A stretch of 64,000 bases of DNA from an uncultured Actinomycetes bacterium (GTDB lineage: Bacteria; Actinomycetota; UBA4738; HRBIN12), in NCBI GenBank assembly GCA_963708985.1, contig CAVPUQ010000002.1, positions 155,240 through 219,239 of the forward strand, read 5' to 3'. Made by a program: the position numbers and the translations under genes. Positions 1 through 19,451 of this stretch are shown piece after piece; within the stretch, counting starts at the first letter, position 1; every line of letters starts with the position of its first letter. The notes under the pieces were generated by a model, which saw only the letters and a program-made list of their open reading frames with translations, did not search any database and had not been told where the DNA came from.

Positions 1-340
1 CGCCGTCGTAGGGGCGCCCGACGACCTGAGCGATGTCGGCCGCCATGGCCTCGTCGCTGACCTCGTGGTTGGCGCTCTGGAAGCGGTTGTAGCAGGCGGC
101 GCAAGGCACCGCGACCGCGTCGAGCTTCATGTCGTCCTTGACCTTGACGAGCTCGTTGGCCGGCAGGGCAGCCGCCAGCAGACGGTTGGCGGAGTGGCCG
201 GCGGTGTTGCCGCAGCACTGCCAGCCGGGGATCTCGGCGAGGTCGACGTCGAGCTTGGCCATCGTGCCATCGAACGAGCTGTCGAGCTCCTTGGCGGTGC
301 TGTGGAGCGAGCAACCGGGGTAGTAGGCGAGCTTGGTCAT
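1..340 (-). CDS. hdrB: Heterodisulfide reductase subunit B (HdrB), N-terminal part; gene runs off the window edge
   Basis: Minus-strand translation from ATG at 340..338: MTKLAYYPGCSLHST...WQCCGNTAGH...PCAACYNRFQ. This is the CCG (cysteine-rich) domain signature of HdrB/GlcF. Its ATG overlaps the hdrC stop (ATGA). Confidence 0.8.
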   Translation of the reverse strand, partial: MTKLAYYPGCSLHSTAKELDSSFDGTMAKLDVDLAEIPGWQCCGNTAGHSANRLLAAALPANELVKVKDDMKLDAVAVPCAACYNRFQSANHEVSDEAMAADIAQVVGRPYDG

Positions 341-981
341 GACGTTCCGCCCACCTTCGGGGTTCCACCGGCAGCCGAGGCGCCGCTGGCGCCCGGCGCC
401 TTCCCGGCCGCCGCGATCTTGGCCTCGACGCGCCGCCGGGCCTCGACGCGCTCGGCCGCCCGGGACATGCGCTTCATCTGCCTGCGATCGCCGATCGCCG
501 GTAGCAGGCCGACCTTCCCCTTGGACAGCATCTTGATGCCGAGACCGGTGTAGCCGAGCGCGGCCTTGGGTCGCCTGAGCAGGTCGAGCACGACGAGCTC
601 GAGCTCATACAGGCGGCCCCAGCGCCTGAACGACCTGTAGTTGATGTCGAGGCTGCGCGCGAACGGCATGTCCCTACGTACCCGACCATCGTGGCGGGCG
701 ATGATCCGCAGCTCGTCCATGATCGAGGCGACGTCGATGCCCTGGGGGCAACGCGTGGTGCACGTCTCGCAGCCGGTGCACAGCCAGATGAACCTGCTGC
801 CGACCGACATGGCCTCGTCGCCGAGCTGCACGGCACGCATGACCTGAGCCGGATGGACGTCGGCGAACGGGGCCACCGGGCAGCCGGTGGAGCACTCCTT
901 GCACTGGTAGCACAGGTAGGGGTTCTCGCCCGATCCGGAGCGGATCCGTGCAGCGAGGGCGCCCGACAGGGTCTGGGTCAC
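337..981 (-). CDS. hdrC: Heterodisulfide reductase subunit C (HdrC), 2x[4Fe-4S] ferredoxin domain
   Basis: The ORF 337..1083 contains CYQCKECSTGCP and CTGCETCTTRCP. The likely start is GTG at about 981, preceded by GGAGGAGG. The longer ORF start would overlap the metF stop at 1017. Confidence 0.75.
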   Translation of the reverse strand: MTQTLSGALAARIRSGSGENPYLCYQCKECSTGCPVAPFADVHPAQVMRAVQLGDEAMSVGSRFIWLCTGCETCTTRCPQGIDVASIMDELRIIARHDGRVRRDMPFARSLDINYRSFRRWGRLYELELVVLDLLRRPKAALGYTGLGIKMLSKGKVGLLPAIGDRRQMKRMSRAAERVEARRRVEAKIAAAGKAPGASGASAAGGTPKVGGTS

Positions 982-1016: not shown

Positions 1017-1967
1017 TCAAGCGACCGCAGGGCGCGGCGTCAGTCCGGCGGCCTCGACGATCTCGGGAACGGCAGACTCCCACTCGATAGCCATGATGTG
1101 CACCCCTGCAACGCCCTCGACCTCGGCCAGCTCCTCGATCATCTCGACGGCGAGCTTCTTGCCTTCGGTCTGCTGCGCCTCACCCTTGTCCCTGCCGGCG
1201 ATGCGGTCGATGATCTCCTGCGGCACGTCCATGCCGGGCACCGACTTCTTCATGTAGTTGGCCATGCCGGCGCTCTTGATGGGCGTGATGCCGGCGAGGA
1301 TCTTGACCTCCTGGTGGAGTCCCAAGGCCCGCACCTCCTCCATCCACTGCTTGAACCTGGAGACGTTGAAGATGCACTGGGTCTGCACGAAGTCGGCGCC
1401 GGCTTCGACCTTCTTCTTGAGACGAAGGGCGCGGAACTCGAGCGGATCGCCGAAGGGGTTCTCTGCGCAGCCGATGAAGAGGGGAGGGGCAACGTCCATC
1501 TCCTCTCCGCACTGGAACCTCTTCTCATCGCGCATGTCCTTGTACATGCGGATCAGGCCGATCGAGTCAAGGTCGTGGACCCCCCGGGCCTTGGGGTGGT
1601 TCCCGAAGCTGATGTGGTCGCCCGTCAGGCAGAGGATGTTCTTCACGCCGAGCGTGGCGGCGCCGAGGATGTCGGCCTGCATGGCGAGCCGGTTGCGGTC
1701 GCGGCAGGTCATCTGCATGACCGCTTCGACGCCGCTCAGCTGCACCGTGTGAGCGGCGGCGAGCGAGCAGACGCGTACCACGGCCGTCTGGTTGTCCGTG
1801 ACGTTGGCGGCATCGACGTAGCCCCGGAGGAGCTCGGCCTTCTCTTCTATGACGCGGCCGTCTGCGCTCTTCGGCGGGCCGCACTCGCCGGTGACGGCGA
1901 ACGTGCCCGCCGAGAGGACCTTCTCGAGGTTGCTGCCCGCCTTCAGTGTCAGGAGATCGTCGCTCAT
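1017..1967 (-). CDS. metF: Methylenetetrahydrofolate reductase, MetF of the MetFV type
   Basis: 316 aa, MSDDLLTLKAGSNLEKVLSAG... with MTHFR TIM-barrel motifs (QTQCIFN, ILAGITPI). Same arrangement as the Moorella MetF that sits with MetV/HdrABC/MvhD. Its ATG overlaps the metV stop (ATGA). Confidence 0.85.
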   Translation of the reverse strand: MSDDLLTLKAGSNLEKVLSAGTFAVTGECGPPKSADGRVIEEKAELLRGYVDAANVTDNQTAVVRVCSLAAAHTVQLSGVEAVMQMTCRDRNRLAMQADILGAATLGVKNILCLTGDHISFGNHPKARGVHDLDSIGLIRMYKDMRDEKRFQCGEEMDVAPPLFIGCAENPFGDPLEFRALRLKKKVEAGADFVQTQCIFNVSRFKQWMEEVRALGLHQEVKILAGITPIKSAGMANYMKKSVPGMDVPQEIIDRIAGRDKGEAQQTEGKKLAVEMIEELAEVEGVAGVHIMAIEWESAVPEIVEAAGLTPRPAVA

Positions 1968-2647
1968 ACCGGCTTCGCTTCTTCGCGCACCATCTTCCGA
2001 GGACCACCGGAGCTGCTCTTGCTCCAGTCCTTGGGCGGACGGTACTGGAACATCAGCTCTTCACGGCCCTGCGCCTTCAGGCGCTCCCAGATCAGTGCCC
2101 AGGCGCACTCGATCTCCTCCCCGTCGGGGCCGACGACCTCGCAGAGTCCGGCGTGTGAGCCACCGCAGGGGCCGTTCATGAGGCTCTTGGAGCAGCGCAC
2201 CACCGGGCAGATGCCGGCGGTGAGTCCGATCACACAGTCGCCGCACGCAACGCAGCGCTCGAGCCACACCGCATGCTCCTGGGGCATGCCGAGCATGTTG
2301 GTGTTGACGGCCGGCATGACCAGCTTGGGGGCGAACTTCTCGGCCAGGGCCTGGATGCCGATACCGCACGCCATGCTGAGCACGAGCGGGAACTCGCCGA
2401 CCTTGTCGGCGATCGTGTCGAGGTACTCCCACTCGCACTGGCGGATGGCGGCCGTGTGCTCGACGGTGACCTCACGGCCTTCTTCCTTCGCCCTGATGCT
2501 GATCTCGGAGGCGAGGATCTCCGCCTCCTTCTCGCCCCCGGACATACAGATCGCGACACACGTGTCGCAGCCGGCGACCAGCACCCTGTCGTGCCCTTCG
2601 GTCATGGCGTAGATCTCGGCGAAGGGTTTGCGTTCCGCTGTGATCAT
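1964..2647 (-). CDS. metV: MetV, the zinc-ribbon small subunit of MetF-type MTHFR. In frame with the upstream mvhD, with no stop between them
   Basis: 227-aa segment MITAERKPFAEIYAMTEGHDRVLVAGCDTCVAICMSGGEKE...RCVACGDCV...CSKSLMNGPCGG. There is an internal ATG at 2647..2645 with an AGGAAGGA RBS. It is the C-terminal part of the continuous 1964..3262 reading frame. Confidence 0.75.
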   Translation of the reverse strand: MITAERKPFAEIYAMTEGHDRVLVAGCDTCVAICMSGGEKEAEILASEISIRAKEEGREVTVEHTAAIRQCEWEYLDTIADKVGEFPLVLSMACGIGIQALAEKFAPKLVMPAVNTNMLGMPQEHAVWLERCVACGDCVIGLTAGICPVVRCSKSLMNGPCGGSHAGLCEVVGPDGEEIECAWALIWERLKAQGREELMFQYRPPKDWSKSSSGGPRKMVREEAKPV

Positions 2648-3262
2648 CTCTTCGGTCCTTCCTGCACGGTGACCCCTGCGACGGACCCGCTGGGGGGTGT
2701 CGTCGGCACCCGCCGGGACGCCATCGGGCAGAGCGGCGTCACCCAGCCGGGCGCGCACGACCTCGGCCGGCTCGAAACCGTCCCGGGGCCGCACGGGGTT
2801 CGGCCCGAGGCGGCGGATGCGCTCGGTGAACTCGCGTGCCGTCCTGGCGAACTCCGGCCCCATGGCCGACGACATGTTGAACATCTCGACGCGCTGGGGA
2901 TCCATGCCCACTTCCTCGAGCAGCCTCTGCACGTGCCCCATCCGCTTGCGCGCCCAGAGGTTGCCCTCGAGGTAGTGGCACTGGCCTTCGAGGCATCCGG
3001 CGGCGTAGACGCCGTCGGCGCCGGCCTCGAGCGCCTTGAGCACGTGGATGACCTCGAGCTTGCCGGTGCAGGGCAGCTTGATCATGCGGATGTTGGTCGG
3101 GTACTGCAGGCGCATGCTTCCGGCGAGGTCGGCGGCCGCGTAGGCGCAGTAGTGACAGGCGAAGACGATGATCTCGGGTTCGAAGCCCTCGTTCGCCGGC
3201 AGCGCCGATCCGGTCGCCGGGTCGGCGAGGGTCGTCGTCGCCTGCCGTGCGTCGTCGGTCAT
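2648..3262 (-). CDS. mvhD: MvhD/FlxD-like [2Fe-2S] electron-transfer subunit. No stop codon before metV, so apparently translationally fused
   Basis: MTDDARQ...IIVFACHYCAYAAADLAGSMRLQYPTNIRMIKLPCTGKLEV...AAGCLEGQCHYLEGN...EFARTA is the canonical MvhD fold. The ATG at 3262..3260 overlaps the hdrA-like TGA. A Pro/Arg-rich 45-aa linker then runs straight into the MetV methionine. Confidence 0.75.
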
Positions 3263-6200
3263 CACACGTGAGCTCCCATGGTCAGCGCCTCTTCCTTCGC
3301 GAAGATCTGCACGTCCGTGTAGTGGTGCAGCTCGATCGCCTTGGCAGGGCATTCGCTGGCGCAGATGCCGCAACCCTGACAGGCCGCCGCCTCGATCGTG
3401 GCCTTCTTGGTGTCGGGCTCGATGATCGGCACGCCGTAGGGGCAGATCCGCACGCAGGTGAGGCAGGCGGCGCACTTGTCCTGGTCGACCTCCGCGACGA
3501 CGCCGCCGGCCGCGAGCGCCGGCTTGGCGAGGATCGCCGCGGCGCGACCGGCGGCGGCGTAGGCCTGCGAGATCGACTCCTCGATGCCCTTGGGATAGTG
3601 GGCCGAGCCGCACAGGAAGATGCCCTCGCTGGCGAAGTCGACCGGGCGCAGCTTGACGTGCGCCTCGAGGTAGAAGCCGTCGGCGGTGAGCGGCACCTTG
3701 AGCATCTTCGAGAGCTCCTCGTTCCCGTCGTTCGGGACCGTCGGGGTGGCCAGCACGAGCAGGTCGAGCGGCAGCCCGATGCGCTTGTTCAGGTACGGGT
3801 CTTTGAAGTCGACCTGGACGGAGCCGTTGGCGGTGACCAGCGGCCGGTCGCCGTTGTCGTAGCGCGTGAAGATGACGCCCAGCTCGCGGGCGCGGGTGTA
3901 GTACTCCTCGGTCAGGCCGGAGGTGCGGATCTCCTTGAACCACACGTAGACCGGTCGGTCGGGGTCCTGCTCCTTCAGGCGGATCGCGTTCTTGATGCTC
4001 TGCGCGCAGCAGGTCCGCGAGCAGTACGGCTTGTTCTCGTCGAGCGAGCCGGTGCACAGGATGAAGCCGACCGAGCCGGCCTGCTCGACCGCCGGGTCGT
4101 GGTCGGCGAGCAGCTTCTCGAGGTCCATGCCGGTGACGACCTTCTGGTTCGAGCCGAGACCGAAGAGCTCGGGGCGTTGCTCCTTCGCGCCGGTGGCGAC
4201 GATCACGACGCCGTGCTCGACGAGCATCCGCCTGCCGTCGTCGTCTTCGATCACGCTGGAGAAGTTGCCGATGAAGCCGTGGAAGTCGGTCAACAAGGCG
4301 CGGAGGTGCACCGTGACGTTGGGGTTGTCGACGACGCGCTTCACGAGCGCGGCGACGAACCCGGCGGGATCGCTGCCCCGGATGGTCCGGTCGAGCTCGA
4401 GCGCCCGTCCACCCAGCGTGTCGGTGCACTCCACGAGGTGCACCTCGTAGCCCATCTCTCCGAGCGCGGCAGCGGCCGTCATGCCCGAGATGCCGCCGCC
4501 CACGACGACGGCGGAGTGGGTGAGCGGCACATCGGTCTTGTAGAGGGGCTCGAGCTCGCGCGCCCGCGCCACGCTCATGCGGATCAGGTCCTTGGCCTTC
4601 TCGGTTGCCTTCTCGGGCTCGTCGCGGTGCACCCACGACGCCTGGTCGCGGATGTTGGCCATCTCGAACAGGAACGGGTTGAGGCCGGCCTCGCGCAGGG
4701 TGTCCTGGAAGATCGGCTCGTGCGTGCGCGGCGTGCAGCTCGCGACCACGACCCGGTTCAGGTCGTGCTCTTCGATCTTCTCCTTGATCAGCTTGAGCGA
4801 GTCGGAGGAACACGTGTACATCGTGTCGTCGGCGCAGACGACGCCGGGGAGCCCCATCGCGTAGTCGGCGGCGCCCTCGACGTCGATCACGCTCGCGATG
4901 TTGGAGCCGCAGTGGCACACGAAGACACCGACGCGCGGCTCTGCTCCGACGACCTGCTTCTCTGCCGGGTAGCGCTTGTCGACCGTCAGCGTGCCGCGCG
5001 CGTCGGCGAGGCCGGTCATCACCCGCGCCGCGGCGGCCGAGGCCTGGGCGACGGAGTCGGGGATGTCCTTGGGCTCGCTGAAGGGGCCGGCCACGAAGAC
5101 GCCGGGGCGTGAGGTGTCGAGCGGCTCGTACTCCTCGAGCTTGCAGAAGCCGTGGCGATTGAGCGCGATGCCCAGGGCGCCGGCGGCCTCCTGCGCCTTG
5201 CGCGAAGGCTCGAGGCCGACCGAGAGGACGACCATGTCGTATCGGTCGGTGTGCAGGGCGCCACCCGCGTCTTCCCAGGTGATCAGCGCATCGCCGGTCC
5301 CCGGGTCCTCCTTGATGGAGGAGGGCCGTGAACGCACGAACCTGACGCCCATGTCGAGGGCCCGCTGATAGAAGTCGTCGAACCCCTTGCCCATGGCACG
5401 CATGTCCATGAGGAAGACGGTCGGTTCGCAGTCGGGCTCGTGGTCGATGGTCAACATCGCCTGCTTGTTCGCGAACATGCAGCAGACGCTGGAGCAGTAC
5501 TCGTGCTCTTGATCGCGCGAGCCGACGCACTGGATGAAGGCGATGCTCTTGGGATGGCGGCCGTCGGATGGCCGCTTGACCTCGCCCTGGTTGGGACCGG
5601 ACGCCGAGAGCATCCTCTCGTACTCCAACGCCGAGAGGATGTTCGGGTACCGGCCGTAGCCGTACTCGCCCTGCCGGCTCGGGTCGTACGGGTCGAAGCC
5701 GGGGGCCAGCACGACGGCGCCCACATCGATCGTGATCTCTTCCTCTCGCTGGTCGAAAGCGATGGCATCGGCTTCGCAGACCACCTCGCAGACGCCGCAC
5801 ACGTCATGACTGAGACGTACGCAGGCGGCCGGGTCGATGACCGCAGTGTTGGGCACAGCCTGCGGGTAGGGGATGTAGACGGCCGGGCGGTCGTCGAGAC
5901 CCAGGTTGTACTCGTTCGCAAGCGGGATCCGCTCGTTCGGCGAGCTGAGCGGCGACACCTTCTTGCCGACGGGGCACACCTGGTCGCAGGCGCCGCAGGT
6001 CCAGCAGGCCTCGTTGTGCCGGCCGAACGGCGGCTCGAGCTTCTTGTTGGAGCCCCTGCCAGAGAAGCCGATCGCCGATCTGCCCATGCGTTCCTCGCAG
6101 ATGCGCACGCACAGACCGCAGTAGATGCAGTCATCGTTCTTCTTCGAGAAGCGCGGCTCCGTCACGCCGTATCCGGCCGCGATCCGCTGGATGACCTCCG

Positions 6201-6498
6201 AGTCGGGGCAGCGGGCCAGGAGGAGCTCGGATGTCACGCGCCGCGCTCGCATCACGCGGTCGCTGTCGGTGACCACGGTCATGCCGTCGAGCACCGGCAC
6301 GGAACACGAGGCCAGGAGACCGGGTGCACGGCCGGCCGTGCTGACCTCGACGACGCACAGCCGGCACGCGCCATATGGCGTCAGGGCCTTGTGGTCGCAG
6401 AGGGTCGGGATCCGGATGCCTTGCTGCTGGAGGGCGCGCAGCAGGTGGATGCCCCCCTCGACCTCGACCGGAGCACCGTTGATCGTCAGGCTCACCAT
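3262..6498 (-). CDS. hdrA: Large HdrA-like flavoprotein (1078 aa) with an N-terminal NuoG-like [2Fe-2S] domain and extra [4Fe-4S] domains. Appears to be a tandem or split HdrA architecture
   Basis: The start MVSLTINGAPVEV...CDHKALTPYGACRLC is a [2Fe-2S] domain, followed by CIYCGLCVRICE / CWTCGACDQVCP. Two HdrA CxGSRD...CSxxCC motifs are present (FIQCVGSRDQEHEYCSSVCC and ILCTGSLDENKPYCSRTCC). It also carries GVFVCHCGSNIASVIDVEG, an FAD Rossmann motif VVVGGGISGMTAAAALGEMGYEVHLVE, and a C-terminal 2x[4Fe-4S] domain. The ATG at 6498 overlaps the stop of the upstream gene. Confidence 0.8.
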   Translation of the reverse strand: MVSLTINGAPVEVEGGIHLLRALQQQGIRIPTLCDHKALTPYGACRLCVVEVSTAGRAPGLLASCSVPVLDGMTVVTDSDRVMRARRVTSELLLARCPDSEVIQRIAAGYGVTEPRFSKKNDDCIYCGLCVRICEERMGRSAIGFSGRGSNKKLEPPFGRHNEACWTCGACDQVCPVGKKVSPLSSPNERIPLANEYNLGLDDRPAVYIPYPQAVPNTAVIDPAACVRLSHDVCGVCEVVCEADAIAFDQREEEITIDVGAVVLAPGFDPYDPSRQGEYGYGRYPNILSALEYERMLSASGPNQGEVKRPSDGRHPKSIAFIQCVGSRDQEHEYCSSVCCMFANKQAMLTIDHEPDCEPTVFLMDMRAMGKGFDDFYQRALDMGVRFVRSRPSSIKEDPGTGDALITWEDAGGALHTDRYDMVVLSVGLEPSRKAQEAAGALGIALNRHGFCKLEEYEPLDTSRPGVFVAGPFSEPKDIPDSVAQASAAAARVMTGLADARGTLTVDKRYPAEKQVVGAEPRVGVFVCHCGSNIASVIDVEGAADYAMGLPGVVCADDTMYTCSSDSLKLIKEKIEEHDLNRVVVASCTPRTHEPIFQDTLREAGLNPFLFEMANIRDQASWVHRDEPEKATEKAKDLIRMSVARARELEPLYKTDVPLTHSAVVVGGGISGMTAAAALGEMGYEVHLVECTDTLGGRALELDRTIRGSDPAGFVAALVKRVVDNPNVTVHLRALLTDFHGFIGNFSSVIEDDDGRRMLVEHGVVIVATGAKEQRPELFGLGSNQKVVTGMDLEKLLADHDPAVEQAGSVGFILCTGSLDENKPYCSRTCCAQSIKNAIRLKEQDPDRPVYVWFKEIRTSGLTEEYYTRARELGVIFTRYDNGDRPLVTANGSVQVDFKDPYLNKRIGLPLDLLVLATPTVPNDGNEELSKMLKVPLTADGFYLEAHVKLRPVDFASEGIFLCGSAHYPKGIEESISQAYAAAGRAAAILAKPALAAGGVVAEVDQDKCAACLTCVRICPYGVPIIEPDTKKATIEAAACQGCGICASECPAKAIELHHYTDVQIFAKEEALTMGAHV

Positions 6499-8531
6499 CA
6501 GCGGTCCTCGCCCTTCTCGGTCCGTCCTGCTCCCGCCGCGCCTCGGTCCTGTCTCCACTCAGCCGCCGGGATCGGGACGGGCAGGGATTCCCACTCCTCG
6601 GCCTCTCTGCCCGTCAGCTTCAGCACGGCATCCAGCCTTGGAGGGCACACCTCGAAGCACTCGCCGCACTTGGTGCACAGATCAGCGTCGATCACGTGGA
6701 TCGACTTCCGTTCACCCCTGATGGCGCCGGCGGGGCACGCCTTGAGACAGAGACCGCAGCCCGGGCACCTGTCGGGGTCGATCGCGAACGTGAGGAGCGC
6801 CTTGCATGCCCTCGCAGGGCAGGCACCGTCGTTGATGTGGGCCTCATACTCATCGCGGAAGAAGCGGAGCGTTGAGAGCACGGGGTTGGGCAGCGTGGTG
6901 CCGAGTCCGCACATCGACGCGTCCTTGATCACCTCGCCGAGGTCCTCGAGCAGCTCGAGGTCGCCCGGTCGCCCCTCGCCTGCGGTGATCCGCGTGAGGA
7001 CCTCGAGGAGGGCGTCGCTGCCGTCCCGACAGGTGGTGCACTTGCCGCAGGACTCGTCGTTGGTGAACTGGACGAAGTACTTGGAGACGTCGACCATGCA
7101 CGTGTCTTCGTCCATGACGATCATGCCGCCTGAACCCATGATCGAGCCGGCTTCCCGGAGGCTCTCGTAGTCGACGGGCGAGTCGAAGTAGCTTGCCGGG
7201 ATGCAGCCGCCGGACGGACCCCCGGTCTGGACGGCCTTGAACTCCTTGCCGTCCGGGATCCCGCCGCCGACGTCCTCGACGATCTCGCGAAGGGTCATGC
7301 CCATGGGGACCTCGATCAGCCCGGAGTTCTGGATCTTGCCCACGAGCGAGAAGATCTTGGTGCCCTTGCTGGTCTCAGTGCCCGTTTCCGCGAACCGGCC
7401 GGCGCCGCCCGTGATGATCACTGGGACGTTGGCGAGCGTCTCGACGTTGTTGATGACCGTCGGCTTCCCCCATAGGCCGGACTGCACCGGGTAGGGTGGT
7501 CTTTGCCGCGGCTCCGGCGACCTGCCTTCGATCGAGCGGATCAGAGAGGTCTCCTCACCGCAGACGAACGCGCCCGAACCCTCACGGATCTCGACGTCGA
7601 GGCAGAAGCCCGAGCCGAGGATGTCCTCGCCGAGCAGCCCGTGCTCGCGGGCCTGCTCGATCGCCTTCTGTAGACGGACGATAGCGAGCGGATACTCGGT
7701 CCTCACGTAGGCGTAGCCCCGCGAGGCTCCGATGGCGTATGCCGCGATGGCCATGCCCTCGAGGACCGCATGCGGGTCGGACTCGAGGAGGCTGCGGTCC
7801 ATGTACGCGCCGGGGTCGCCCTCATCGCAGTTGGCGATGATGTACCTCGGCGTCGCCTCTTCGGCGCGGCACAGCTCCCACTTGATGGCCGTGGGGAACC
7901 CGGCGCCCCCACGTCCACGCAGACCCGCGCGGCGCACCTCGTCGATGACCTGTTCGGGCGTCATCGAGGTGACCGCCTTCGCGAGGCCTGCGTAGGCGTC
8001 ACGGGCGAGCGCGTGCTCGAAGACCTCCGGGTCGATGAGGCCCTTGTTGCGGAGCACGACCAGTCGCTGCTTGCTGAAGAACGGCAGGTCGGCGACGAGT
8101 GGCATGGTCGTGGCAACCACTTCCTTCTTCTTCGCCGACGCGTCCGCAGTTGCGCCGGCGACGTCGCCGATGCCGAGGGCGAGATCTTCGACCGCTCGTC
8201 CGCCAACGACGTGGTCGGCCACGATCTTCCGGGCGTCGTCGGCCGCAAGACCACCGTAGAGCGTCGGTGCCTCGCCCGGGACCACGACCGTGACCATCGG
8301 TTCACGCGAGCACAGCCCGGCGCACCCGGTCGTGATGATCTCGACGCCGCCTACCCCCGTCTCAGAGAGCTCGTCGGTGATCGCTGCGAGAACCTCGTTG
8401 GCTCCGGCTGCGCTGCCGCACGTGCCCATGTGGACGATGACCCTGGCGCGTAGGTCTCGTCCTTCGAGGGCAACCTGCCGCACCGCCTCCTCGCGTCGCC
8501 GATAGAGCTCCCGCACGGTGAGGGCGGCCAT
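6498..8531 (-). CDS. NADH-binding flavoprotein of the NuoF/HydB/HoxF/FlxA type (FMN, [2Fe-2S] thioredoxin-like N-domain, 2x[4Fe-4S] C-domain)
   Basis: 677 aa with HMGTCGSAAGANEV...TGCAGLCSREP (thioredoxin-like 2Fe-2S), GRGGAGFPT (NADH/FMN), ESCGKCTTCRDG (N3 cluster), and C-terminal CPGCGLCLKACP / CTKCGECFEVCP. Confidence 0.85.
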   Translation of the reverse strand: MAALTVRELYRRREEAVRQVALEGRDLRARVIVHMGTCGSAAGANEVLAAITDELSETGVGGVEIITTGCAGLCSREPMVTVVVPGEAPTLYGGLAADDARKIVADHVVGGRAVEDLALGIGDVAGATADASAKKKEVVATTMPLVADLPFFSKQRLVVLRNKGLIDPEVFEHALARDAYAGLAKAVTSMTPEQVIDEVRRAGLRGRGGAGFPTAIKWELCRAEEATPRYIIANCDEGDPGAYMDRSLLESDPHAVLEGMAIAAYAIGASRGYAYVRTEYPLAIVRLQKAIEQAREHGLLGEDILGSGFCLDVEIREGSGAFVCGEETSLIRSIEGRSPEPRQRPPYPVQSGLWGKPTVINNVETLANVPVIITGGAGRFAETGTETSKGTKIFSLVGKIQNSGLIEVPMGMTLREIVEDVGGGIPDGKEFKAVQTGGPSGGCIPASYFDSPVDYESLREAGSIMGSGGMIVMDEDTCMVDVSKYFVQFTNDESCGKCTTCRDGSDALLEVLTRITAGEGRPGDLELLEDLGEVIKDASMCGLGTTLPNPVLSTLRFFRDEYEAHINDGACPARACKALLTFAIDPDRCPGCGLCLKACPAGAIRGERKSIHVIDADLCTKCGECFEVCPPRLDAVLKLTGREAEEWESLPVPIPAAEWRQDRGAAGAGRTEKGEDR

Positions 8532-8532
8532 C

Positions 8533-9441
8533 TCAATCGCTCCCCCTGCAGGTCGCGACGATCCCTGGGATGTCCCTGGCTGTCGCCTTCCCGCAGACCT
8601 TGCCGTCCACCATGATGGCCGGGGCCAGGCCGCAGCACCCGATGCAGCGCACGGGCTTCAGCGTGAACAGCCGGTCGTCGGTAGTCTCGTCGGGGTTCAC
8701 CTCAAGGACATCGCTCAGCTTGTCCATCAGCCGCTGGCTCCCGCGCACGTAGCACGTGGTCCCCATGCAAACGCTGATCGTGTGCTTGCCACGCGGGGTG
8801 ATGCTGAACGAGGTGTAGAAGGTGGCGATGCGGTACAGATCGGTGAGCGGCTGGCCCGTGCGCAGCGCTACGTAGACGAGGACGTTCTCTGGGAAGTAGT
8901 TGTACTCGCGGTTGATCTCCTGAAGGATCGGCATCAGCGAGCCGGTCTGGTTGCGGTGGCTCGCCAGGATCTCGTCGACCCTATCTCGAACGGCTGGGTC
9001 GAGCTCCGGCTCTGTCACGGGGTTGAGCTGCACCCTGTTGTGGGTTGGGCAGGAAGTGGTGCACACGCCGCAGCCGGTGCACCTGTCCTCGTCGACATAG
9101 CGCGGTCGCTTCCGAAGGGTGACCTTGAAGTTGCCGACCCCCCCTTCGATGCGCGTCACTTCGGCGCCTGTGATGACGTCGACGTCCTTGTGTCGGCCGA
9201 CCTCGACCAGTTTGGGAGAGATCGTGCACATCGCGCAGTCGTTGGTGGGGAAGGTCTTGTCGAGTTGCGCCATATGGCCACCGAGGGCAGGCTGCTTCTC
9301 GACGAGGTAGACCTTGTACCCGCCCTCGGCGAGATCGAGTGCGCACTGGATACCCGCGACGCCGCCGCCGAGGACGAGCGCGGCCCCGGAGGGCTTGGCA
9401 GCGCCTTGCCGCCGTCCGGCCGGCGTCGGGGTCGGCATCAT
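8533..9441 (-). CDS. Fusion of the HdrA N-terminal FAD half-domain with a NuoE/HoxE-like [2Fe-2S] thioredoxin-like ferredoxin
   Basis: From ATGATG at 9441: ...[52 protein letters not shown]...[19 protein letters not shown] matches the HdrA N-terminus. It is followed by a NuoE-like segment [18 protein letters not shown]...[12 protein letters not shown]...CIGCCGLAP. The 446-aa ORF start is an upstream GC-rich extension. The real start overlaps the acsE stop (ATGA). Confidence 0.7.
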
Positions 9442-10388
9442 GCAGGTCCTTCCTGCCCGCCCGAGTGGAGGTACCCCTCGGCATAGATGACCTTGTTCAG
9501 CAGGATCTGCACGGTCTTCCACACCTCGAGCTGCTCGGCGTCGTCGAGGTCTACGTCGTCGATGGACGGCTCTTCCATGGCAGCGATGCGATCTGCGATC
9601 GCCACGTATAGCCTGCCGAGCGGCGTGGAGGCGTCGCGTGCCTCGACGACGCGGATCACCTCCATCAGCTCCTCCTCGAGGGGGTTGGCGATCATCATCT
9701 GCAGGCCCGCCCCCATGAGCATGGCGCAGTACACACGATTGATGAGCGGTCGGTCCGCGGAGGGAACCGCGTTCGAGACGTTGGACAGCCCCACCGAGAT
9801 CGCCGGTGGCGGATCCCAGGCCACCGGGACCGTTCGCACGGCTTCGATCGCCTCGGGGCAGTACTCCTGGCATCCCGAGACCGTGAGGACGAGGGGGTCG
9901 ATGATGAGATCCGACACCGGGAAGTCGATCTCGAGCATCCGGGGGATGAGCTTCTCGATGACGATGTTCACTCGCTCGTCGGCGGATACGGGGATCCCGC
10001 TCTTGCCCATCGTGAGGGCCACCAACCTGGCGTCGTAGCGCTTGGCGAGGAGGGGAACCTCCTCCAGGCGCTCCTCTTCGGCCGAGGTGGAGTTGATGAT
10101 CGGCTGTGCCTTGGTGATCGCCCGCAGCCCGGCCTCGATGCCGCGGATGTTGGTGCTGTCCAGGCTCAAGGGGACATCGACGGCCGCCTCGACGGTCCGC
10201 ACGATCCAGGGGAAGACCTCCTCCCAGTCCTTCTTGCGCGGTCCGAGGTTCAGGTCCAGCGCCTGGGCGCCCGCCTCGACCTGGGCGGCCGCGAGGTTCT
10301 GGAAGAAGGAAGCGTCGCGTTCCGCCAGTGCGGCCTTCACCTTCTCCGAAACGATGTGGATGTTCTCGCCGATCAGGTACATGGTCAT
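9438..10388 (-). CDS. acsE: Methyltetrahydrofolate:corrinoid/iron-sulfur protein methyltransferase (AcsE/MeTr)
   Basis: 316 aa, [11 protein letters not shown]...ALDLNLGP...LSLDSTN...LTMGKSGIP...GLSNVS. This is the pterin-binding TIM barrel of AcsE. Confidence 0.85.
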
Positions 10389-10394
10389 GTCCTC

Positions 10395-12302
10395 CTAGGT
10401 GATCGACGCCTCCACGGAAGGGAACCGCGAGAGATCCGTGTGCGGCAGGAACAGTGCCGAGGTGAAGGCCTCGTAGAACGAGTTGTCGGCTGACAGCTCG
10501 ATGTACGTCATCGCCGAGGCGATCCCGGCGACCGCGGCTCGCATCTCACGATCCAGCAGGGCGAGATACGCGCCCTTGACCGAGGTGTTCCCCAGGAACT
10601 CGAAACGCTCCCAGGGAAGATCGGGAAGCAGGCCGATGTCCACGGCCTTCTCGACGTTGATGTACTTGCCGAACGCCCCGCCGATCAGCACCCTTTCGAC
10701 GGAGCCGAGCTCGACGCCCACTCGGTCGGCAAGGACGTTGAAGCCCGCGTAGACCGCGGCCTTGGCCCTCAGCAGGTTGTCGATGTCCACCGCCGTGATG
10801 GTGATGTCATCGCCGTCCGCCGTGTCCTTCCCCCAGGCCACGACGTACTCGGCCCCGTGCTCGCCGCGCCGGACCCGTGGCGTTGGCAGGGTCTGATCGA
10901 TGTGCCCACCCTTGTCGACGATGCCGGTGAGGAACATCTCGGCGACGAGCGAGATCAACCCGCTCCCACAGATCCCGCGAGGCCGACCCTTCCCGATCAC
11001 CCGACAGGTCGGCTCGTAGGTCCGACCGTCGATCCACACCTCCTCGACGGCTCCGCGGGCCGCCCGCATGCCGTGCACCACGCCCGAGCCCTCGAAAGCG
11101 GGCCCCGCCGAGCAGGCGCACGACACGAGCCAGCTCGAGGACCCCAGGACCATCTCCCCGTTGGTGCCGATGTCGATGAACAGCGTGGTCTCGTCGGAGG
11201 ACCGCAGGCCTGAGGAGAGCACGCCGGCGCTGATATCCGCCCCTAGGTAGCTGGCGACCCCCGGCAGCAGGTCGACGGTTCCCTCCGGGCACATGCTGAT
11301 GCCCACGTCCCGGGCGGACAGGCAGGGCGGGTGGTTGATGGACGTGATGAACGGCTCGAGACGGATGCTCTCCGGAGGGATGCCGAGCAACAGGTGCATC
11401 ATCGTGCTGTTGCCGGCGACGACGGCCTTCACGATGGCGGTCGGCTCGACGTTCGCGCGGCGACACACCGCCTCGATCCGCTCGTTGATCGTCGCGAGGA
11501 CGAGCTCCCTCAGCTCCTCGCCGCCGTCTCCCTTGGTGGCGTAGATGATGCGGGAGATGATGTCCTCGCCCCGGGCGATCTGCTGGTTGTACTCGGACGA
11601 CTGGGCCATCACCTCCCCGGTGAGGAGATCCACCAGGCACACCGTGACCGTGGTCGTGCCGATGTCGATCGCGAGCCCACACAGCGGCTCCGAGGCTGCC
11701 GCCGCCGGGCCGATCGCGACGAGGCGAGCGGTGCCCGGCGGCTCGTCCGCGGTGTCGTAGGTGACAGCCACCTGCCAGTCGGAGGATCGGAGCATCCCGC
11801 CGAGCTCGCGGACCTGCGACAGCGACGCTCGGAGCCGGTCGGTGCCGGTCTCGCGGCGAAGCGCGGTGCACAGTCGCGCCCAGTCGTCGGTCTGGTCGTC
11901 CATCGACGGCCGGGGGAGGAGGAGAACGACCCTGCCGATCGTCTGCGCCTTGGCGGCGTCGTACCCGTCGGGCGCGACGATCTCCGGCGCGACGTGATCG
12001 GTCGTGAGCCGGCGCTCGATCTGCTCGACGGGCGGCACGACGACCGACACGTCACCCTCGACCACCGTCTGGCAGGCGAGGGCGTACCCGGCTTCCACGT
12101 CGGCCGCGGAGAGGCGGAGCACGCTCCGGCGCCGCACCCGACCCGATTCCACCCGCACGGCGCAACGCCCGCACCGTCCCTGCCCGCCGCAGGGTTGCTG
12201 GATGTCGAGCCCGAGCCGGCGAGCAGCTTCGACCAGCAGGGTCCCCGCCCGTACGGTGATGGGCTCGGCACGGTCGGCGAATCGGACGATGTGCTCGGCC
12301 AC
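10395..12302 (-). CDS. Corrinoid iron-sulfur protein reductive activase (RACo): [2Fe-2S] ferredoxin plus ASKHA ATPase
   Basis: 635 aa. The N-terminal plant-type ferredoxin reads [12 protein letters not shown]...ALACQT. The ASKHA domain shows [11 protein letters not shown] and FIDIGTNGE. Confidence 0.8.
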
Positions 12303-12316
12303 GGGGGCTCCTCAGA

Positions 12317-13678
12317 TCACGGTCGATCCTCCACCAGCACGGTCTTCATGTAGGCAGGCAGATCCACCGCTTCGCGGGGACCGACCATCACGTGCCAATC
12401 GGGCAGCTCTTCTTCGAGCTCGCCAGACAGGACGGCGACGTGCCCGGGAAGCACGATCTGTCGTCGATCGACCTTGTCAGCCACCCCGAACTCCTTGACG
12501 GCCTTGGCTATCGACTCCGCATCGAACTTGCCGGCTGCCCACGCCGTCAGCACGCTCATCCCCTCGGCATCGGTGACGAGCAGCCATGCGGGAAGGCCGG
12601 AACCCTCCACCTCGTTGGCGACGCTGAAGTACGTGATGCTGAAGTTCGTCGTGACCAGGAGTGGATCGCTCGGCTTCGGACCGTTGATCTCGTAGAGGGC
12701 GGGTTGCACCTGGATCGGTTGCTGCGGATCCGTGTAGAGGTTCTCGCGCAGGACCAGGAGCGGATACACGAGTTCGGGCGCGAAGACATCCAGCACCACG
12801 AATCCCGCGTACTTCGCGATCGCTTGCGTGGCGACGACGGAGACCATGGCCCGATCGATGGACCCGTCGACGAACCCGATCGTCGGATAGCCGAGCGGCC
12901 GGAAGTTCTTCAAGGCCAGGCGCCGGATCTGTGTCTGCAGCGCCAACGAAGCACCCATCCCCGTCGCCATCGGGCGGAGGACGATGTCCTCCACGCCCTT
13001 GCCCTTCAGCTGCTCGCTGAGGTCGGCGAGCTCGTCCAGGGTGCTGCCTGCGACGCTCAGGGCAGCGCCATGCTCGAGCGCCAGATCGGCCATCCGCTCC
13101 CAGTTCTGCTGGTCCGCACCGACGAGGAGCGGCTTCTCCCCATCGAGGATCGCCAGGCCGGCTCGAGGACATCCGGGTCCTCACCCACCAGCACCATCGG
13201 GAGATCGCTGACCCGCCGCACCGTACCCACCGCTCCAGCGAACCTCGCGGGATCACCGGAAGTGGATCCCACGGCGAACCCGTCGATCCCGAGCTCGACG
13301 CCGACGTAGTCGACGGTGTAGGCGTCCGCCCGCTTGACCTGCTCCTCGATCGCCGCCTCCTCGAGCGTGTCGGCGACGTCGATGAGGACACCCGGGCGGT
13401 TGACGAACGTCTTCTCGTGTCGGAAGAGCACCGTTTCGTTGCCGGCCTTGACCTGACGGCCCCTCCCCACCAGCTCGATCAGCCGGATCGGCGGAGCGGC
13501 CGATGCGGCGAGCTCCGTCTTGGACTCGTCCGTCACGTAGGGGCAGTCGCCCAGGTCGACCTGTTTGGCCGCCAGCTTCATGGCGAACGCGAGGCAGGTG
13601 GGGAATCCGCATTCCTTGCAGTTGGTCTGCGGGAGGAGCTTGTAGATCTGGATCCCTGAGAGTGCCGTTGGCCGTCAC
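12317..13678 (-). pseudogene. acsC: CoFeSP large subunit AcsC, broken by at least two frameshifts
   Basis: C-terminal ORF 12317..13093: GYPTIGFVDG..., LYTDPQQPIQV and a B12-binding-like tail. N-terminal ORF 13057..13581: CKECGFPTCLAFAMKLAAKQVDLGDCPYV, the [4Fe-4S] site. The N-terminus ...LSGIQIYKLLPQTNCKEC is out of frame with the only nearby start (GTG about 13678). A second shift sits at about 13155-13160, where a CCC/CC run splits ...DPDVLEPA from LAILDGEKPLLVGADQQNWERMADLA... Confidence 0.7.
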
Positions 13679-14646
13679 CTACCCCACTGTCATCAACTGG
13701 TCGAGGGCGGCCCGCACGCGGGTGAGGCTCTCCGGGTGGCGGAGCACGACGACATCCGCGCCCGCTTCGATCAGCGCCACGGCGGTAACGGTCTCCCAGT
13801 TCACCGCCCGCTCTCCCCAGTCACCCCACGCGTCCGGCACGCCCTGACCGACCTTCGCCTCTTTGGTCTTCCAGGCCTCGTAGCCGGGGTTCACCACCAT
13901 CGGGAGTTGGGTCATGGCATCCCCCTGGAGCGCGGCGAGCCGCAGTCGCTCCATGACCGAGTACCCGTACTCGATGCCGTAGCCGAGTGCGCCGGTGGTC
14001 GGATCCATCAGGATCCGCTCGCGCGGCAGGCCCATGTCGGTGATCAGGATGATGAGCTGCTTGGCCAGGTTGACGTCCATCGGGGTGCGGCCCATCACCA
14101 GGTGATCGTTGGCCATGGCGGCCGCGACGATGGTCCGGTAGTTGGTGTCTTCGCAGAGGCCCAGCACCAGCCGCTCACCCTTGGTGGCGTCGGCGACCGG
14201 GACGAGGAGCTCGTTGTCGACCTCCGCCTGCCCCGGTCCCACCACGATCAACGGGCAGCCCGGTGCTCTCGAGGACCTTCGTGACCGAGCGCACGGCGAG
14301 ATCGGGGCTGACGGGATCGCCGCCGGCGTCCTCGAGACCCAGCACGAGGACGATGAGGTCGGCCCCGGCCATCCGGCGGCCGCCGCCCAGCTGCCGGGGT
14401 CCTCGGCGCACCTCACCCCAGGCCTCCAGCAGCACCGCCGACCAGTCGTTCGGTCGGAGGGAAGCGATCTCCAGCGCGATGACGGGACGGTGTGGAGGCG
14501 TCTCCTCGAAGTGCAGGAAGGGAAGGGTGCGTCTCGCCCCCGATCGTGACGGTCGAGGTTCGCGTCCCACCATCCTGCGCCGTCGCTCCCAGCGTGACGA
14601 CCTTGACCGCACCCGGCCAGTCGTCCTTGGGGATCTCAATCGGCAC
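13679..14646 (-). pseudogene. acsD: CoFeSP small subunit AcsD, broken by about two frameshifts
   Basis: Start GTG at about 14646 after AGGAGG: (M)PIEIPKDDWPGAVKVVTLGATAQDGGTRTSTVTIGGETH... Shift at about 14523-14526 (G run), then ...LPFLHFEETPPHRPVIALEI...ADLIVLVLGLEDAGGDPVSPDLAVRSVTKVLESTGLPV. Shift at about 14235 (GTTG), then IVVGPGQAEVDNELL...GYGIEYGYSVMERLRLAALQGD...VVLRHPESLTRVRAALDQLMTVG. Confidence 0.7.
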
Positions 14647-14692
14647 GAAGGCCTCCTGCTGGTGCGGTCGCGCTCCGGTCCGGTCCGGCCGA

Positions 14693-16992: not shown

Positions 16993-17009
16993 GAGCGGCG
17001 TGCCCTCCC

Positions 17010-19046: not shown

Positions 19047-19058
19047 GGTGGCTCCCCC

Positions 19059-19451
19059 TCACTCCTCCGTCGTCTCGGTCGGCACCGTCCGGGGCGAGGC
19101 CGAAGCCTTCAGCTCTTGCCGGAAGGCGACAGCCGAACCGGACGGCGCGTTGCTCGTGGTGTGTCGTAGGTACCGTCCATCCGCGACCGTTCTGTCGGTC
19201 GCAGGTTCACCCGATTCCATCGGCACGGGTAGTGGGGAGAGGTATCCGGCCTCGTCGAGCTGCCGTCGGAGTTCCTCTGCCGACGTGTGCTCGGCGTCGA
19301 AGTCGATCTCGACGACACCGAAGGCGCTCGAGGCGTAGACGGCCTGCACCCCCGGCACGTCGTGAAGGATGCGCCGAACCTCCACCACGTGGTGGTCGGC
19401 ATACATAGCCGGGACGTCGATGATGACCGACGTCAACTCATCTCCCGTCAT
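19059..19451 (-). CDS. Small hypothetical protein with a ferredoxin-like (HMA-type beta-alpha-beta-beta-alpha-beta) fold. First gene of the CODH/ACS operon
   Basis: MTGDELTSVIIDVPAMYADHHVVEVRRILHDVPGVQAVYASSAFGVVEIDFDAEHTSAEELRRQLDEAGY, with the usual CxxC replaced by YADHH, then a low-complexity tail. An alternative start at 19490 is possible. Confidence 0.4.
   Translation of the reverse strand: MTGDELTSVIIDVPAMYADHHVVEVRRILHDVPGVQAVYASSAFGVVEIDFDAEHTSAEELRRQLDEAGYLSPLPVPMESGEPATDRTVADGRYLRHTTSNAPSGSAVAFRQELKASASPRTVPTETTEE

Follow-up and report, generated by a model that had tools for sequence, protein, structure and literature searches.

The window analyzed here, a stretch of 64,000 nt from an uncultured Actinomycetes bacterium (contig CAVPUQ010000002.1), carries a Wood-Ljungdahl operon that continues into genes for a methylene-tetrahydrofolate (methylene-THF) reductase (MTHFR) of the heterodisulfide reductase (Hdr) type. 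This enzyme is predicted to be built on a tandem HdrA that a NuoEFG module has opened: the HdrA sequence is divided between two chimeric genes, hdrA'::nuoE (encoding protein C) and nuoG'::hdrA'' (encoding protein A), with nuoF (encoding protein B) between them. The best explanation of the locus as a whole is an Hdr-type MTHFR coupled to NAD(H) through three redox arms, to which we assign a probability of about 0.6. Every relevant gene lies on the minus strand, in the order cooS-acsB-CFeSP-RACo-acsE-[hdrA'nuoE]-nuoF-[nuoG'hdrA'']-mvhD-metV-metF-hdrC-hdrB, the G+C content of the region is 66–69%, and the coordinates of the chimeras were all confirmed (Table 1).

The division of HdrA becomes evident from comparison with unsplit relatives. 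Residues 10–133 of protein C followed by residues 163–1065 of protein A are collinear with the tandem HdrAs of about 1000 aa found at three loci (L numbers denote loci fetched for comparison), L033 of Archaeoglobi, L053 of Desulfobacteraceae and L058 of Desulfosarcina variabilis, with overall identities of 43–63%. The protein C and protein A parts are 63 and 45% identical to the L033 protein and 64 and 43% identical to the L058 protein, respectively, and L053 is likewise collinear with both. Protein C 10–133 aligns to residues 1–124 of an unsplit tandem HdrA, protein A picks up the HdrA sequence that follows Cys motif 1 (NEYNLG...YPQAVP) and then motif 2, and the sole overlap of the two pieces on the unsplit proteins is the first ferredoxin motif. 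The genes nuoE-nuoF-nuoG' thus follow directly on the first Cys motif of the ferredoxin domain that is inserted in HdrA copy 1. The initial annotation had taken end-to-end alignment of the two pieces to a single ordinary HdrA as a sign of a sequencing or assembly artefact. The pieces do match single unsplit proteins, but these are tandem forms of about 1000 aa rather than ordinary HdrA, and since nuoE-nuoF-nuoG' are conserved between the HdrA pieces, the split is biological.

Residues 19–133 of protein C correspond to residues 145–258 of the Methanothermococcus HdrA (5ODC_A, E 3e-41) and also match 8rvu_a (E 6e-46), while residues 155–298 match NuoE (PF01257, E 3e-44). The NDCxxC motif, Cys motif 1 and the NuoE cysteines are invariant in 32 homologues. 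The initial annotation correctly saw the beginning of the FAD fold in the NuoE-fused piece; this piece is, however, not the N-terminal domain of HdrA, but the early part of the thioredoxin reductase (TrxR)-like domain together with half of the inserted ferredoxin domain. Protein B comprises an N-terminal thioredoxin-like [2Fe-2S] domain, the FMN/NADH core, an NADH_4Fe-4S cluster domain and a C-terminal 2x[4Fe-4S] ferredoxin-like domain. Its residues 28–630 align near full length to the HydB-type proteins 7t2r_B and 7q4v_B, and also to 9n5u_B and 9mqx_B, and the alignments to these solved B subunits take in both terminal domains, which are absent from respiratory NuoF. The NuoF homologue with all four domains and the NuoE homologue with its [2Fe-2S] site make up a core of the HydBC/Bfu type.

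Protein A begins with a NuoG-type head; among solved structures, the 247-aa chain 9mqx_A matches it best. That 9mqx represents the BamGHI module of class II benzoyl-CoA reductase (BCRII) was suspected but is not claimed here; the BCRII preprint gives other PDB codes. The head carries ligands for one [2Fe-2S] cluster (C34/C45/C48/C65) and two [4Fe-4S] clusters (C124/C127/C130/C134 and C165/C168/C171/C175), the latter within the Pfam Fer4_7 match at residues 124–178. Because the head has this motif pair of its own, motif 2 of protein A (C226-x7-C234-x2-C237-x3-C241) must pair with motif 1 of protein C. The copy-1 FAD site and both [4Fe-4S] clusters of the inserted ferredoxin domain must therefore each be built from two polypeptides, as judged by motif counting and the invariance of all eight cysteines.

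The remainder of protein A aligns to HdrA in three rearranged blocks (residues 164–445 to HdrA 245–511, 520–748 to 3–232, and 921–1071 to 496–648; overall E 2e-171). Both CxGS(R/L)D...CSxxCC motifs reported on this ORF (open reading frame) in the initial annotation were found, as C324/C335/C339/C340 in TrxR-like domain 1 and C815/C826/C830/C831 in TrxR-like domain 2. The sequence GVFVCHCGSNI, previously taken for the ferredoxin insert, lies instead in the N-terminal domain of HdrA, where Cys197 of the partner copy completes the cluster. Copy 1 has NDCxxC and the inserted ferredoxin domain without the N-terminal domain. The copy-2 N-terminal domain provides C528, C530, C563 and C588 and presumably relies on C69 of protein C to complete its cluster, following the logic by which Cys197 of the partner HdrA copy serves this purpose (PMC9012536; bioRxiv 10.64898/2026.04.10.717634). 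Such complementarity of Cys197 and the N-terminal domain between copies has been described for the HdrAs of anaerobic methanotrophic archaea (ANME) and of Moorella (PMC9012536), and for BamE of BCRII (bioRxiv 10.64898/2026.04.10.717634). By its sequence, the tandem HdrA is a pseudo-heterodimer. All Fe-S cysteines of protein A are 100% conserved in 24 sequences, and in the same set the E/K pair, used as the criterion for a bifurcating flavin (PMC9430772), is conserved at 100% in copy 1 (E294/K345) and at 96 and 83%, respectively, in copy 2 (E794 and K836).

The split of HdrA, the fusion of its first part to NuoE and the tandem body with a NuoG head, all proposed in the initial annotation, are upheld by the Pfam matches, the alignment to 5ODC_A and the coordinates. 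Its view that the arrangement is not a standard HdrA, HdrA2 or Flx layout also stands: neither chimera reaches the cut-off of any NCBIfam model, and against NF041778 (canonical HdrA, cut-off 1400) protein A scores 624 bits in three rearranged stretches and protein C 119 bits. The canonical methanogen HdrA is one chain of about 650 aa, whereas the elements are here spread over two copies and two polypeptides. Taken together, proteins C and A have the layout of the BamE/Moorella-type tandem HdrA, as shown by alignment to the three unsplit proteins, but in two ORFs instead of a single polypeptide; three other loci have even more pieces. No GltD/NfnB-like segment was found in protein C or protein A by Pfam or by alignment to unsplit relatives. 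The Pfam scan detected no FlxA/FlxBC-type genes between acsE and hdrB, where the only domains are NuoE/F/G-type, HdrA, FlpD, MetV, MetF and HdrC-type Fe-S domains; hdrB was recognized by its CCG motif and its orthologue in locus L083.

Table 1. Genes of the operon and domains of proteins C and A. Positions are those of the window.
Feature	Position	Strand	Remarks
Upstream part of operon	9438..19046	-	Wood-Ljungdahl genes, same direction as the chimeras
cooS/acsA	17010-19046	-	
acsB, then two corrinoid Fe-S protein (CFeSP) genes	between cooS/acsA and RACo	-	
RACo	10395-12302	-	
acsE	9438-10388	-	stop overlapped by ATG of protein C
Protein C, hdrA'::nuoE chimera, 302 aa	8533..9441	-	Pfam and PDB matches
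Protein C, residues 19-110		-	first part of TrxR-like domain 1: GxGxxG FAD fold, TFPTNDC69AMC72
Protein C, residues 115-133		-	Cys motif 1 (CxxCxxCxxxCP) of inserted ferredoxin domain: C121, C124, C127, C131
Protein C, residues ~140-298		-	NuoE/HydC-type, with [2Fe-2S] site C225, C230, C266, C270
Protein B, nuoF of HydB/Bfu type, 677 aa	6498..8531	-	PF01512 1.5e-48, PF10589 4e-32, Fer4 582-630
Protein A, nuoG'::hdrA'' chimera, 1078 aa	3262..6498	-	Pfam and PDB matches
Protein A, residues 1-180, NuoG/BamI-like head	5959..6498	-	Fer2_4 E 5e-18; 9mqx_A E 2e-39 (residues 3-179)
Protein A, residues 181-510	4969..5958	-	remainder of inserted ferredoxin domain and of TrxR-like domain 1
Protein A, residues 511-650, HdrA N-terminal (MvhD-like) domain of copy 2	4549..4968	-	aligns to HdrA 3-140
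Protein A, residues 651-985, TrxR-like domain 2	3544..4548	-	complete GxGxxG; without NDCxxC and without inserted ferredoxin domain
Protein A, residues 986-1078, C-terminal 2x[4Fe-4S] ferredoxin domain	3262..3543	-	
mvhD	2644..3262	-	FlpD domain at residues 31-153, E 2e-50
metV, 227 aa counted from MITAERKPF	1964..2647	-	PF12225, E 3e-31
metF, 316 aa	1017..1967	-	PF02219, E 4e-45; ATGA overlap with metV
hdrC-like gene	337..981	-	2x CxxCxxCxxxCP; Fer4_17/Fer4_8; TIGR03290 E 4.5e-17
hdrB-like gene	1..340	-	motif MTKLAYYPGCSL...CCG; gene cut by window edge; ATG overlaps hdrC stop

The same layout was found on an independent contig of the Joint Genome Institute (L084), in the order acsB-CFeSP-RACo-acsE-C(302)-B(677)-A(1079)-mvhD-metV-metF. 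Proteins C, B and A are 89, 90 and 87% identical to those of the window and MetV is 97% identical; C, B, A and metV align full length, and the contig stops just within metF. When one genome per species was scanned, 27 loci with hdrA' beside nuoE were found. The two are fused in one ORF in 24 of the 27 loci, and nuoG' and hdrA'' are fused in all 22 loci with data. By the phylum labels of the database records, these loci span about 12 phyla, including Acidobacteriota, Desulfobacterota, Ignavibacteriota, Bacillota, Cloacimonadota, Latescibacterota, Fibrobacterota, Spirochaetota and Planctomycetota, as well as Altiarchaeales and another archaeon; the window is from an actinobacterium that resembles Thermoleophilia. 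In a protein search the fused architecture of about 295 aa was present in 120 of the 120 best matches, and 3,067 protein clusters were found at E<=1e-60, a threshold that probably requires both halves because half-matches give only about 140–170 bits. The database names are ‘NuoE’ or ‘NAD(P)H-dependent oxidoreductase subunit E,’ with the exception of one ‘HndA’ and one ‘hypothetical protein.’ At three loci of Desulfobacterota (L021 9965-10984, L026 9649-10638 and L059 5727-6687), hdrA' of about 125 aa is a separate, unfused small ORF, suggesting that the copy-1 flavin domain can assemble from a separate fragment.

An ordinary hdrA misassembled beside unrelated nuo genes, or a decaying pseudogene, would be the trivial explanation. 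Probable indels elsewhere in the window lend it some substance, but the ORF lengths agree with those of the independent contig at 87–90% identity (302, 677 and 1078 versus 1079 aa), the same fusions recur across dozens of genomes and in thousands of clusters, the ligand cysteines are all conserved and the G+C content at third codon positions (GC3) is 0.9. This explanation is refuted by the L084 locus, the counts of fused genes and the 3,067 clusters, and we regard it as extremely improbable; the layout is genuine.

The indels in question concern neighboring genes. Relative to L084, frame changes occur in acsB (~16500), the small CFeSP subunit (~14500–14650) and the large CFeSP subunit (~13150), with segments 76–92% identical to the L084 genes spread over two to three frames. 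They represent either consensus errors or decay of the genes for CO dehydrogenase/acetyl-CoA synthase. RACo, acsE and the hdr/nuo and met genes beside them are intact. Furthermore, mvhD and metV are read in the window as a single 432-aa ORF (1964-3262, minus strand), with atypical G+C at first and third codon positions in the linker. L084 and L083 have them as two genes with an ATGA overlap, and a 1-nt difference in a G6/C6 run at 2686-2704 puts the mvhD of the window in frame with metV. An MvhD::MetV fusion was therefore set aside as a probable assembly indel; both the acsB/CFeSP and the mvhD-metV differences look like consensus indels. The hdrC-like gene has a probable GTG start at 981 preceded by GGAGG, and protein A may start at ATG 6498, the L084 protein being longer by one residue.

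The genes mvhD, metV, metF, hdrC and hdrB located downstream of the chimeras, which the initial annotation overlooked, identify the enzyme as an Hdr-type MTHFR. All genes of the type IV MTHFR set (metV, metF, mvhD, hdrA, hdrB and hdrC) are co-located in one direction, and the start and stop codons of metV, metF, hdrC and hdrB overlap or nearly overlap those of their neighbors; the GltD domain within HdrA, a further characteristic of the Moorella enzyme, is absent in the window. The impression that any HdrBC-like partner was missing was overturned by hdrC and the beginning of hdrB, which lie after metF at the window edge. The window copy of hdrB is cut by this edge and shows the first CCG Cys set only, but L083, which carries the same operon with a protein C 76% identical to that of the window, has complete hdrC (182 aa) and hdrB (287 aa, CCG domain, both Cys sets) after metF. 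Beside the L083 cluster lies a gene for dimethylamine methyltransferase (Dimeth_Pyl; 7038-8417, minus strand). It is called in two parts of 343 + 107 aa, as would be expected if an in-frame UAG codon specified pyrrolysine, and it hints at a context of methyl-group oxidation. We are highly confident that the enzyme is a Moorella-like (type IV, Hdr-type) MTHFR built on a BamE-like tandem HdrA. Its proposed subunits are [HdrA'-NuoE], NuoF, [NuoG'-HdrA''], MvhD, MetV, MetF, HdrC and HdrB.

The operon also has the defining feature of the ‘X type’ MTHFR, NuoEFG homologues encoded directly upstream of metV-metF. This type was recognized in Dethiosulfatarculus sandiegensis (Yi et al., 2021, PMC8515935), is common in Desulfobacterales and Chloroflexi, is unstudied and was speculated to be electron-bifurcating (PMC8515935). 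Locus L009 of Desulfobacteraceae shows the layout of the window. Most probably, the window contains an actinobacterial example of the X type, an equivalence drawn from the published description of the D. sandiegensis locus.

The arms of such an enzyme may be assigned by analogy with the cryo-EM structure of BCRII (bioRxiv 10.64898/2026.04.10.717634). In BamE the bifurcating FAD is that of copy 1 (Lys280), electrons enter through the C-terminal ferredoxin domain and BamF, the high-potential output leads from the TrxR-domain cluster to the HdrBC-like BamD, and the low-potential output leads from the N-domain cluster to the inserted ferredoxin clusters. If the assignment is carried over to the window, MetVF occupies the MvhD arm, HdrCB forms the high-potential arm and NuoEFG the low-potential one. 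The HydB-type NuoEFG module would replace the GltD NAD(P)H domain of the Moorella-type HdrA within the same domain, and would let the copy-1 flavin exchange electrons with NAD(H) and possibly also with ferredoxin at the C-terminal domain of NuoF. Electrons would run from the NuoG clusters through the inserted-ferredoxin clusters to the N-domain cluster. The second arm of the flavin, comprising the C-terminal ferredoxin domain and MvhD, would connect to MetV-MetF and the methylene-/methyl-THF couple, and the third, from the TrxR-domain cluster to HdrC-HdrB, to a high-potential partner, either menaquinone or a thiol/disulfide. The reaction would be reversible: 2 methyl-THF + NAD+ + acceptor(ox) <-> 2 methylene-THF + NADH + acceptor(red). 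Run oxidatively, it would bifurcate the electrons of methyl-THF; run reductively, it would confurcate NADH with a high-potential donor. This specific scheme is offered tentatively, as somewhat less probable than even.

Several observations are consistent with three-arm coupling. In the structures of HydABC-type enzymes and BamGHI, the N-terminal helix bundle of NuoE touches the NuoG head; here, NuoE and the NuoG head are both tethered to one ferredoxin domain by spacers of about 10–15 residues. By comparison with these structures the tethering is geometrically self-consistent, and the last cluster of the NuoG head would come to lie beside the split ferredoxin domain. The arm assignment is supported by the way in which the C-terminal ferredoxin domain and MvhD vary together with the MetVF partner. 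The potentials of the couples are −200 mV for methyl-/methylene-THF, −320 mV for NAD and −74 mV for menaquinone (PMC13391211). For the Moorella type IV enzyme, bifurcation of methyl-THF electrons to NAD+ (uphill) and menaquinone (downhill) has been proposed, as has the reverse, confurcation of NADH and menaquinol (PMC13391211), also considered for Sporomusa (PMC9430772). A partner at the level of menaquinone is hinted at by the L083 HdrB (18837-19700), which matches the SdhE anchor of 8-methylmenaquinol:fumarate reductase with E 2e-50 and CoB-CoM HdrB with E 1e-42, both below cut-off. The QmoC-like subunit of related hydrogenase cassettes (described below) and the dimethylamine methyltransferase of L083 give further hints in this direction. 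Members of Desulfobacterales oxidize acetyl-CoA via the reverse pathway.

Classical bifurcation of NADH (2 NADH + methylene-THF + Fd(ox) -> 2 NAD+ + methyl-THF + Fd(red)) was considered as an alternative. NADH would act as the mid-potential donor at NuoF, methylene-THF as the high-potential and ferredoxin, at the NuoF C-terminal domain, as the low-potential acceptor, leaving HdrBC a structural or regulatory role. NuoF does have all domains of the ferredoxin-reducing HydB type, bifurcation was the speculation of Yi et al. (PMC8515935) for the NuoEFG-MetFV X type, and this was the original proposal for the Moorella enzyme. The Moorella complex, however, did not use ferredoxin as acceptor, and NADH-dependent reduction of methylene-THF was not seen (PMC9430772, PMC13391211). 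Moreover, the operon keeps hdrC and hdrB, the complete L083 HdrB having both CCG Cys sets, and homology assigns the donor (MvhD) arm to MetVF and the low-potential arm to the NADH module. We consider this mechanism unlikely.

Two bifurcation sites might also operate in series, as in BCRII but wired via the ferredoxin arm. In the oxidative direction, the NuoF FMN would divide the low-potential electrons coming from the HdrA flavin a second time, between NAD+ and ferredoxin, and a quinone-level acceptor at HdrBC would pay the cost; in reverse, NADH and reduced ferredoxin would be confurcated. The HydB-type NuoF/NuoE core is intact, BCRII couples such a core with a tandem HdrA in one complex, and the fusion sets the two modules side by side. 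By calculation, though, NADH and ferredoxin average about −400 mV, and with methyl-THF at −200 mV the third couple would have to lie at about 0 mV, above menaquinone at −74 mV. The relatives with a plain GltD NAD(P)H domain, which manage with this alone, suggest that ferredoxin is not essential. A serial arrangement therefore appears rather improbable. Still far less probable is a plain wire with no energy coupling. Some HdrA-containing complexes are thought to be non-bifurcating (PMC9430772), and copy 2 of BamE is structural (10.64898/2026.04.10.717634), but the E/K signature of the bifurcating flavin is invariant in copy 1 and three redox arms, about 17 predicted Fe-S clusters and four flavins are conserved, where an RnfC-like or MetF-only solution would do.

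Some considerations weigh against three-arm coupling to NAD(H). All electron paths in this variant are drawn by homology, and covalent tethering indicates proximity rather than an electron route. In BCRII the homologous BamGHI module feeds the other arm, that of the C-terminal ferredoxin domain and MvhD (10.64898/2026.04.10.717634), so the position of the module is not fixed in the family. With a HydB-type NuoF, a second coupling site and ferredoxin may be involved, changing the stoichiometry. The E/K signature is kept at both flavin sites, so either flavin could be the hub. The altered reading frames of acsB and the CFeSP genes may point to a damaged pathway or to an assembly that is prone to errors. 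Finally, although no description of ‘NuoE’/‘NuoG’ genes as split-tandem-HdrA chimeras was found in the literature searched, Appel et al. 2021 (BBA 1862:148379), which lay outside the search, may hold it.

Comparison of the fetched loci revealed a combinatorial family. The ferredoxin-domain arm carries nothing, a GltD insert or the nested NuoEFG; the partners of the MvhD arm are MetVF or the [NiFe]-hydrogenase MvhAG; and the third arm consists of HdrC and HdrB in MetVF-linked loci or of a 389-aa protein encoded directly upstream of hdrA in Mvh-linked loci of both variants. In the GltD variant (L035, L029 and L080), a GltD/NfnB-like segment of about 500 aa lies just before motif 2 of the same ferredoxin domain. 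From the sequences, the GltD insert and the nested NuoEFG are alternative attachments of an NAD(P)H-oxidizing flavoprotein to one domain. In Bam-like loci, NuoE, NuoF and the NuoG head are encoded by separate genes after mvhD. The 389-aa protein comprises an HdrC-like Fe-S domain and several membrane helices, and matches QmoC end to end (NF038018, E 9e-50, below cut-off).

The Mvh-linked loci form a compact cassette, mvhG-mvhA-(hycI)-qmoC-like-hdrA(tandem, nested NuoEFG or GltD)-mvhD, found mainly in Acidobacteriota, for example at L004 5397-16524 (L001-L008, L010, L028-L030, L032, L034, L036, L040 and L049). This arrangement suggests a membrane-linked, NAD(P)-coupled Mvh-type hydrogenase, of which no description was found. 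Many Mvh-linked cassettes carry an extra 127-aa paralogue of the NuoF N-terminal domain ahead of nuoF, and in many of them 2.6–4 kb of putative regulators (DRTGG, CBS-HATPase, PHP, HATPase) lie between nuoF and nuoG'::hdrA'' (L001/L002 10881-15742; similar in L003, L006, L008, L011 and L024).

The segments of the window proteins differ in their closest relatives. The C-terminal ferredoxin domain and MvhD are 55–65% identical to MetVF-linked relatives versus 30–50% to Mvh-linked ones and, together with MetVF, are closest to Chloroflexi clusters of the GltD type. NuoE, NuoF and the NuoG head are closest to those of Mvh-linked cassettes, with 64–69% identity. In a rough neighbor-joining tree of HdrA bodies, built without bootstrap, the nested, GltD-type and unsplit forms intermix, and the Acidobacteriota variants L005/L007 (nested) and L040, L029, L030, L032 and L034 (GltD) are close. 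A single origin of the nested variant is not supported by this tree without bootstrap or by the mosaic segment identities; they suggest repeated exchange of the NAD(P)H module, a lead from a tree without support values.

Two of the unsplit tandem HdrAs, those of L053 (~10160) and L058 (~10170), have an in-frame TGA at the second Cys of NDCxxC (TFPTNDCxM*ILSPK). This codon, found in Desulfobacteraceae and Desulfosarcina, probably encodes selenocysteine; in the alignment the solved HdrA 9sfi_A has X at the same position.

A doubtful extension of these comparisons is a widespread ‘double-engine’ class, in which an FMN core of HydBC type would be hard-wired to the low-potential arm of HdrA-type FAD bifurcation, with interchangeable donor arms (MetVF or MvhAG) and high-potential arms (HdrBC or QmoC-like). 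If it exists, oxidation of methyl-THF (−200 mV) could yield NADH and even reduced ferredoxin, paid for by a quinone-level acceptor, and the long-standing question of how the methyl branch runs in reverse would be addressed.

Elsewhere in the window, a 1030-aa ORF (48129-51221, minus strand) contains a haem-copper oxidase subunit I domain, and its host may respire oxygen despite the Wood-Ljungdahl operon. A 588-aa HdrD/DsrK-like protein with CCG and 2x[4Fe-4S] domains is encoded at 57832-59598 (minus strand), and a GrpE ORF with an N-terminal HSP20 domain at 61629-62699 (plus strand).

Which second substrate Hdr-type methylene-THF reductases use, and how electrons travel through them, has been a question since 2014. 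The gene fusion provides natural ‘Rosetta-stone’ evidence that the NADH-oxidizing module docks on the copy-1 ferredoxin domain of HdrA, and on the resulting map MetVF would belong to the MvhD arm and HdrBC to the third. The three-arm scheme fits the proposal of NADH and menaquinol confurcation and could be tested in any cultured X-type carrier. There is also a gap in annotation: thousands of genes from at least a dozen phyla are named only ‘NuoE’ or ‘subunit E,’ often beside Mvh-type hydrogenases and a QmoC-like subunit, and metabolic reconstructions thus miss an HdrA-based, probably energy-coupling enzyme. The individual parts, the logic of the tandem HdrA, the GltD/NfnB insertion, the co-occurrence of HydBC and HdrA in BCRII and the NuoEFG-metFV arrangement are already published. 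No report was found in the literature searched that the NuoEFG insertion shares its ferredoxin domain with the GltD insert, or that one and the same cassette is used by Mvh-type hydrogenases together with a QmoC-like subunit in many phyla. The initial annotation had suggested a new coupling of an NADH dehydrogenase to the bifurcating flavin; an NADH-dehydrogenase-like module is indeed covalently tied to HdrA, while its parts are known from BamEFGHI, the Moorella GltD domain and the X type.

Among related systems, the HdrAs of ANME (Chadwick et al., 2022, PMC9012536) have likewise lost Cys197 and the N-terminal domain complementarily between copies, and in HdrA9-11 the ferredoxin domain contains an NfnB-like flavoprotein of the NAD(P)H type as an insert. 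They differ in the reverse copy order of the fused HdrA3/4, in an insert that is a single domain and in the absence of gene fission. The text of the paper describing the X type (PMC8515935) makes no mention of HdrA fragments, MvhD or HdrBC. With the HydABC/Bfu family the window shares a NuoF with HydB terminal domains and a HydC-like NuoE, and the cluster set of the NuoG head is the reduced set of the Bam/Wor-type BfuA. The difference is that each of the BfuA and BfuC counterparts is joined to part of a different bifurcating flavoprotein, a type absent from the text and one supplement of the Bfu classification; the ‘third substrate’ of Bfu enzymes would in the window be an HdrA flavin.

The closest resemblance in subunit composition is to MetFV-HdrABC-MvhD (‘6S’) of Moorella thermoacetica, encoded in or adjoining the acs cluster. 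Its HdrA, of 1487 aa, has an extra TrxR-like domain that is interrupted by GltD beside an additional ferredoxin domain, and the GltD domain binds FAD, NAD(P)H and a [4Fe-4S] cluster (PMC9430772). As in the window, it is a fused double HdrA with the ferredoxin domain in copy 1, the N-domain as well as the C-terminal ferredoxin domain but no insert in copy 2, E and K conserved in both copies, and an NAD(P)H-oxidizing element inserted in the copy-1 ferredoxin domain. Moorella has one chain with GltD, while the window has NuoE, the FMN-containing HydB-type NuoF and the NuoG head; this module lies about 30 residues upstream of the GltD site in the same domain and splits hdrA into two chimeric genes. 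The gene order also differs, with hdrCB located after metF in the window.

The same building blocks occur in BamDEFGHI of the class II benzoyl-CoA reductase from Geobacter metallireducens and Desulfosarcina: BamE is the tandem HdrA, BamF is MvhD-like, BamG corresponds to NuoE, BamH to the HydB-type NuoF, BamD is HdrBC-like, and BamI is a small NuoG head with one [2Fe-2S] and two [4Fe-4S] clusters. Residues 163–1071 of protein A are 43% identical to a BamE-like protein of Desulfosarcina variabilis encoded in the order BamE-F-G-H-I. The Bam proteins are, however, encoded by separate genes in this order, BamGHI feeds the arm of the C-terminal ferredoxin domain and BamF, and the tungsten enzyme BamBC receives its electrons from the inserted ferredoxin domain (10.64898/2026.04.10.717634). 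In the window it is the inserted ferredoxin domain to which NuoEFG is attached, and MetVF occupies the MvhD arm, which would represent a second way of coupling a HydBC-type to an HdrA-type module, unlike that of benzoyl-CoA reductase.

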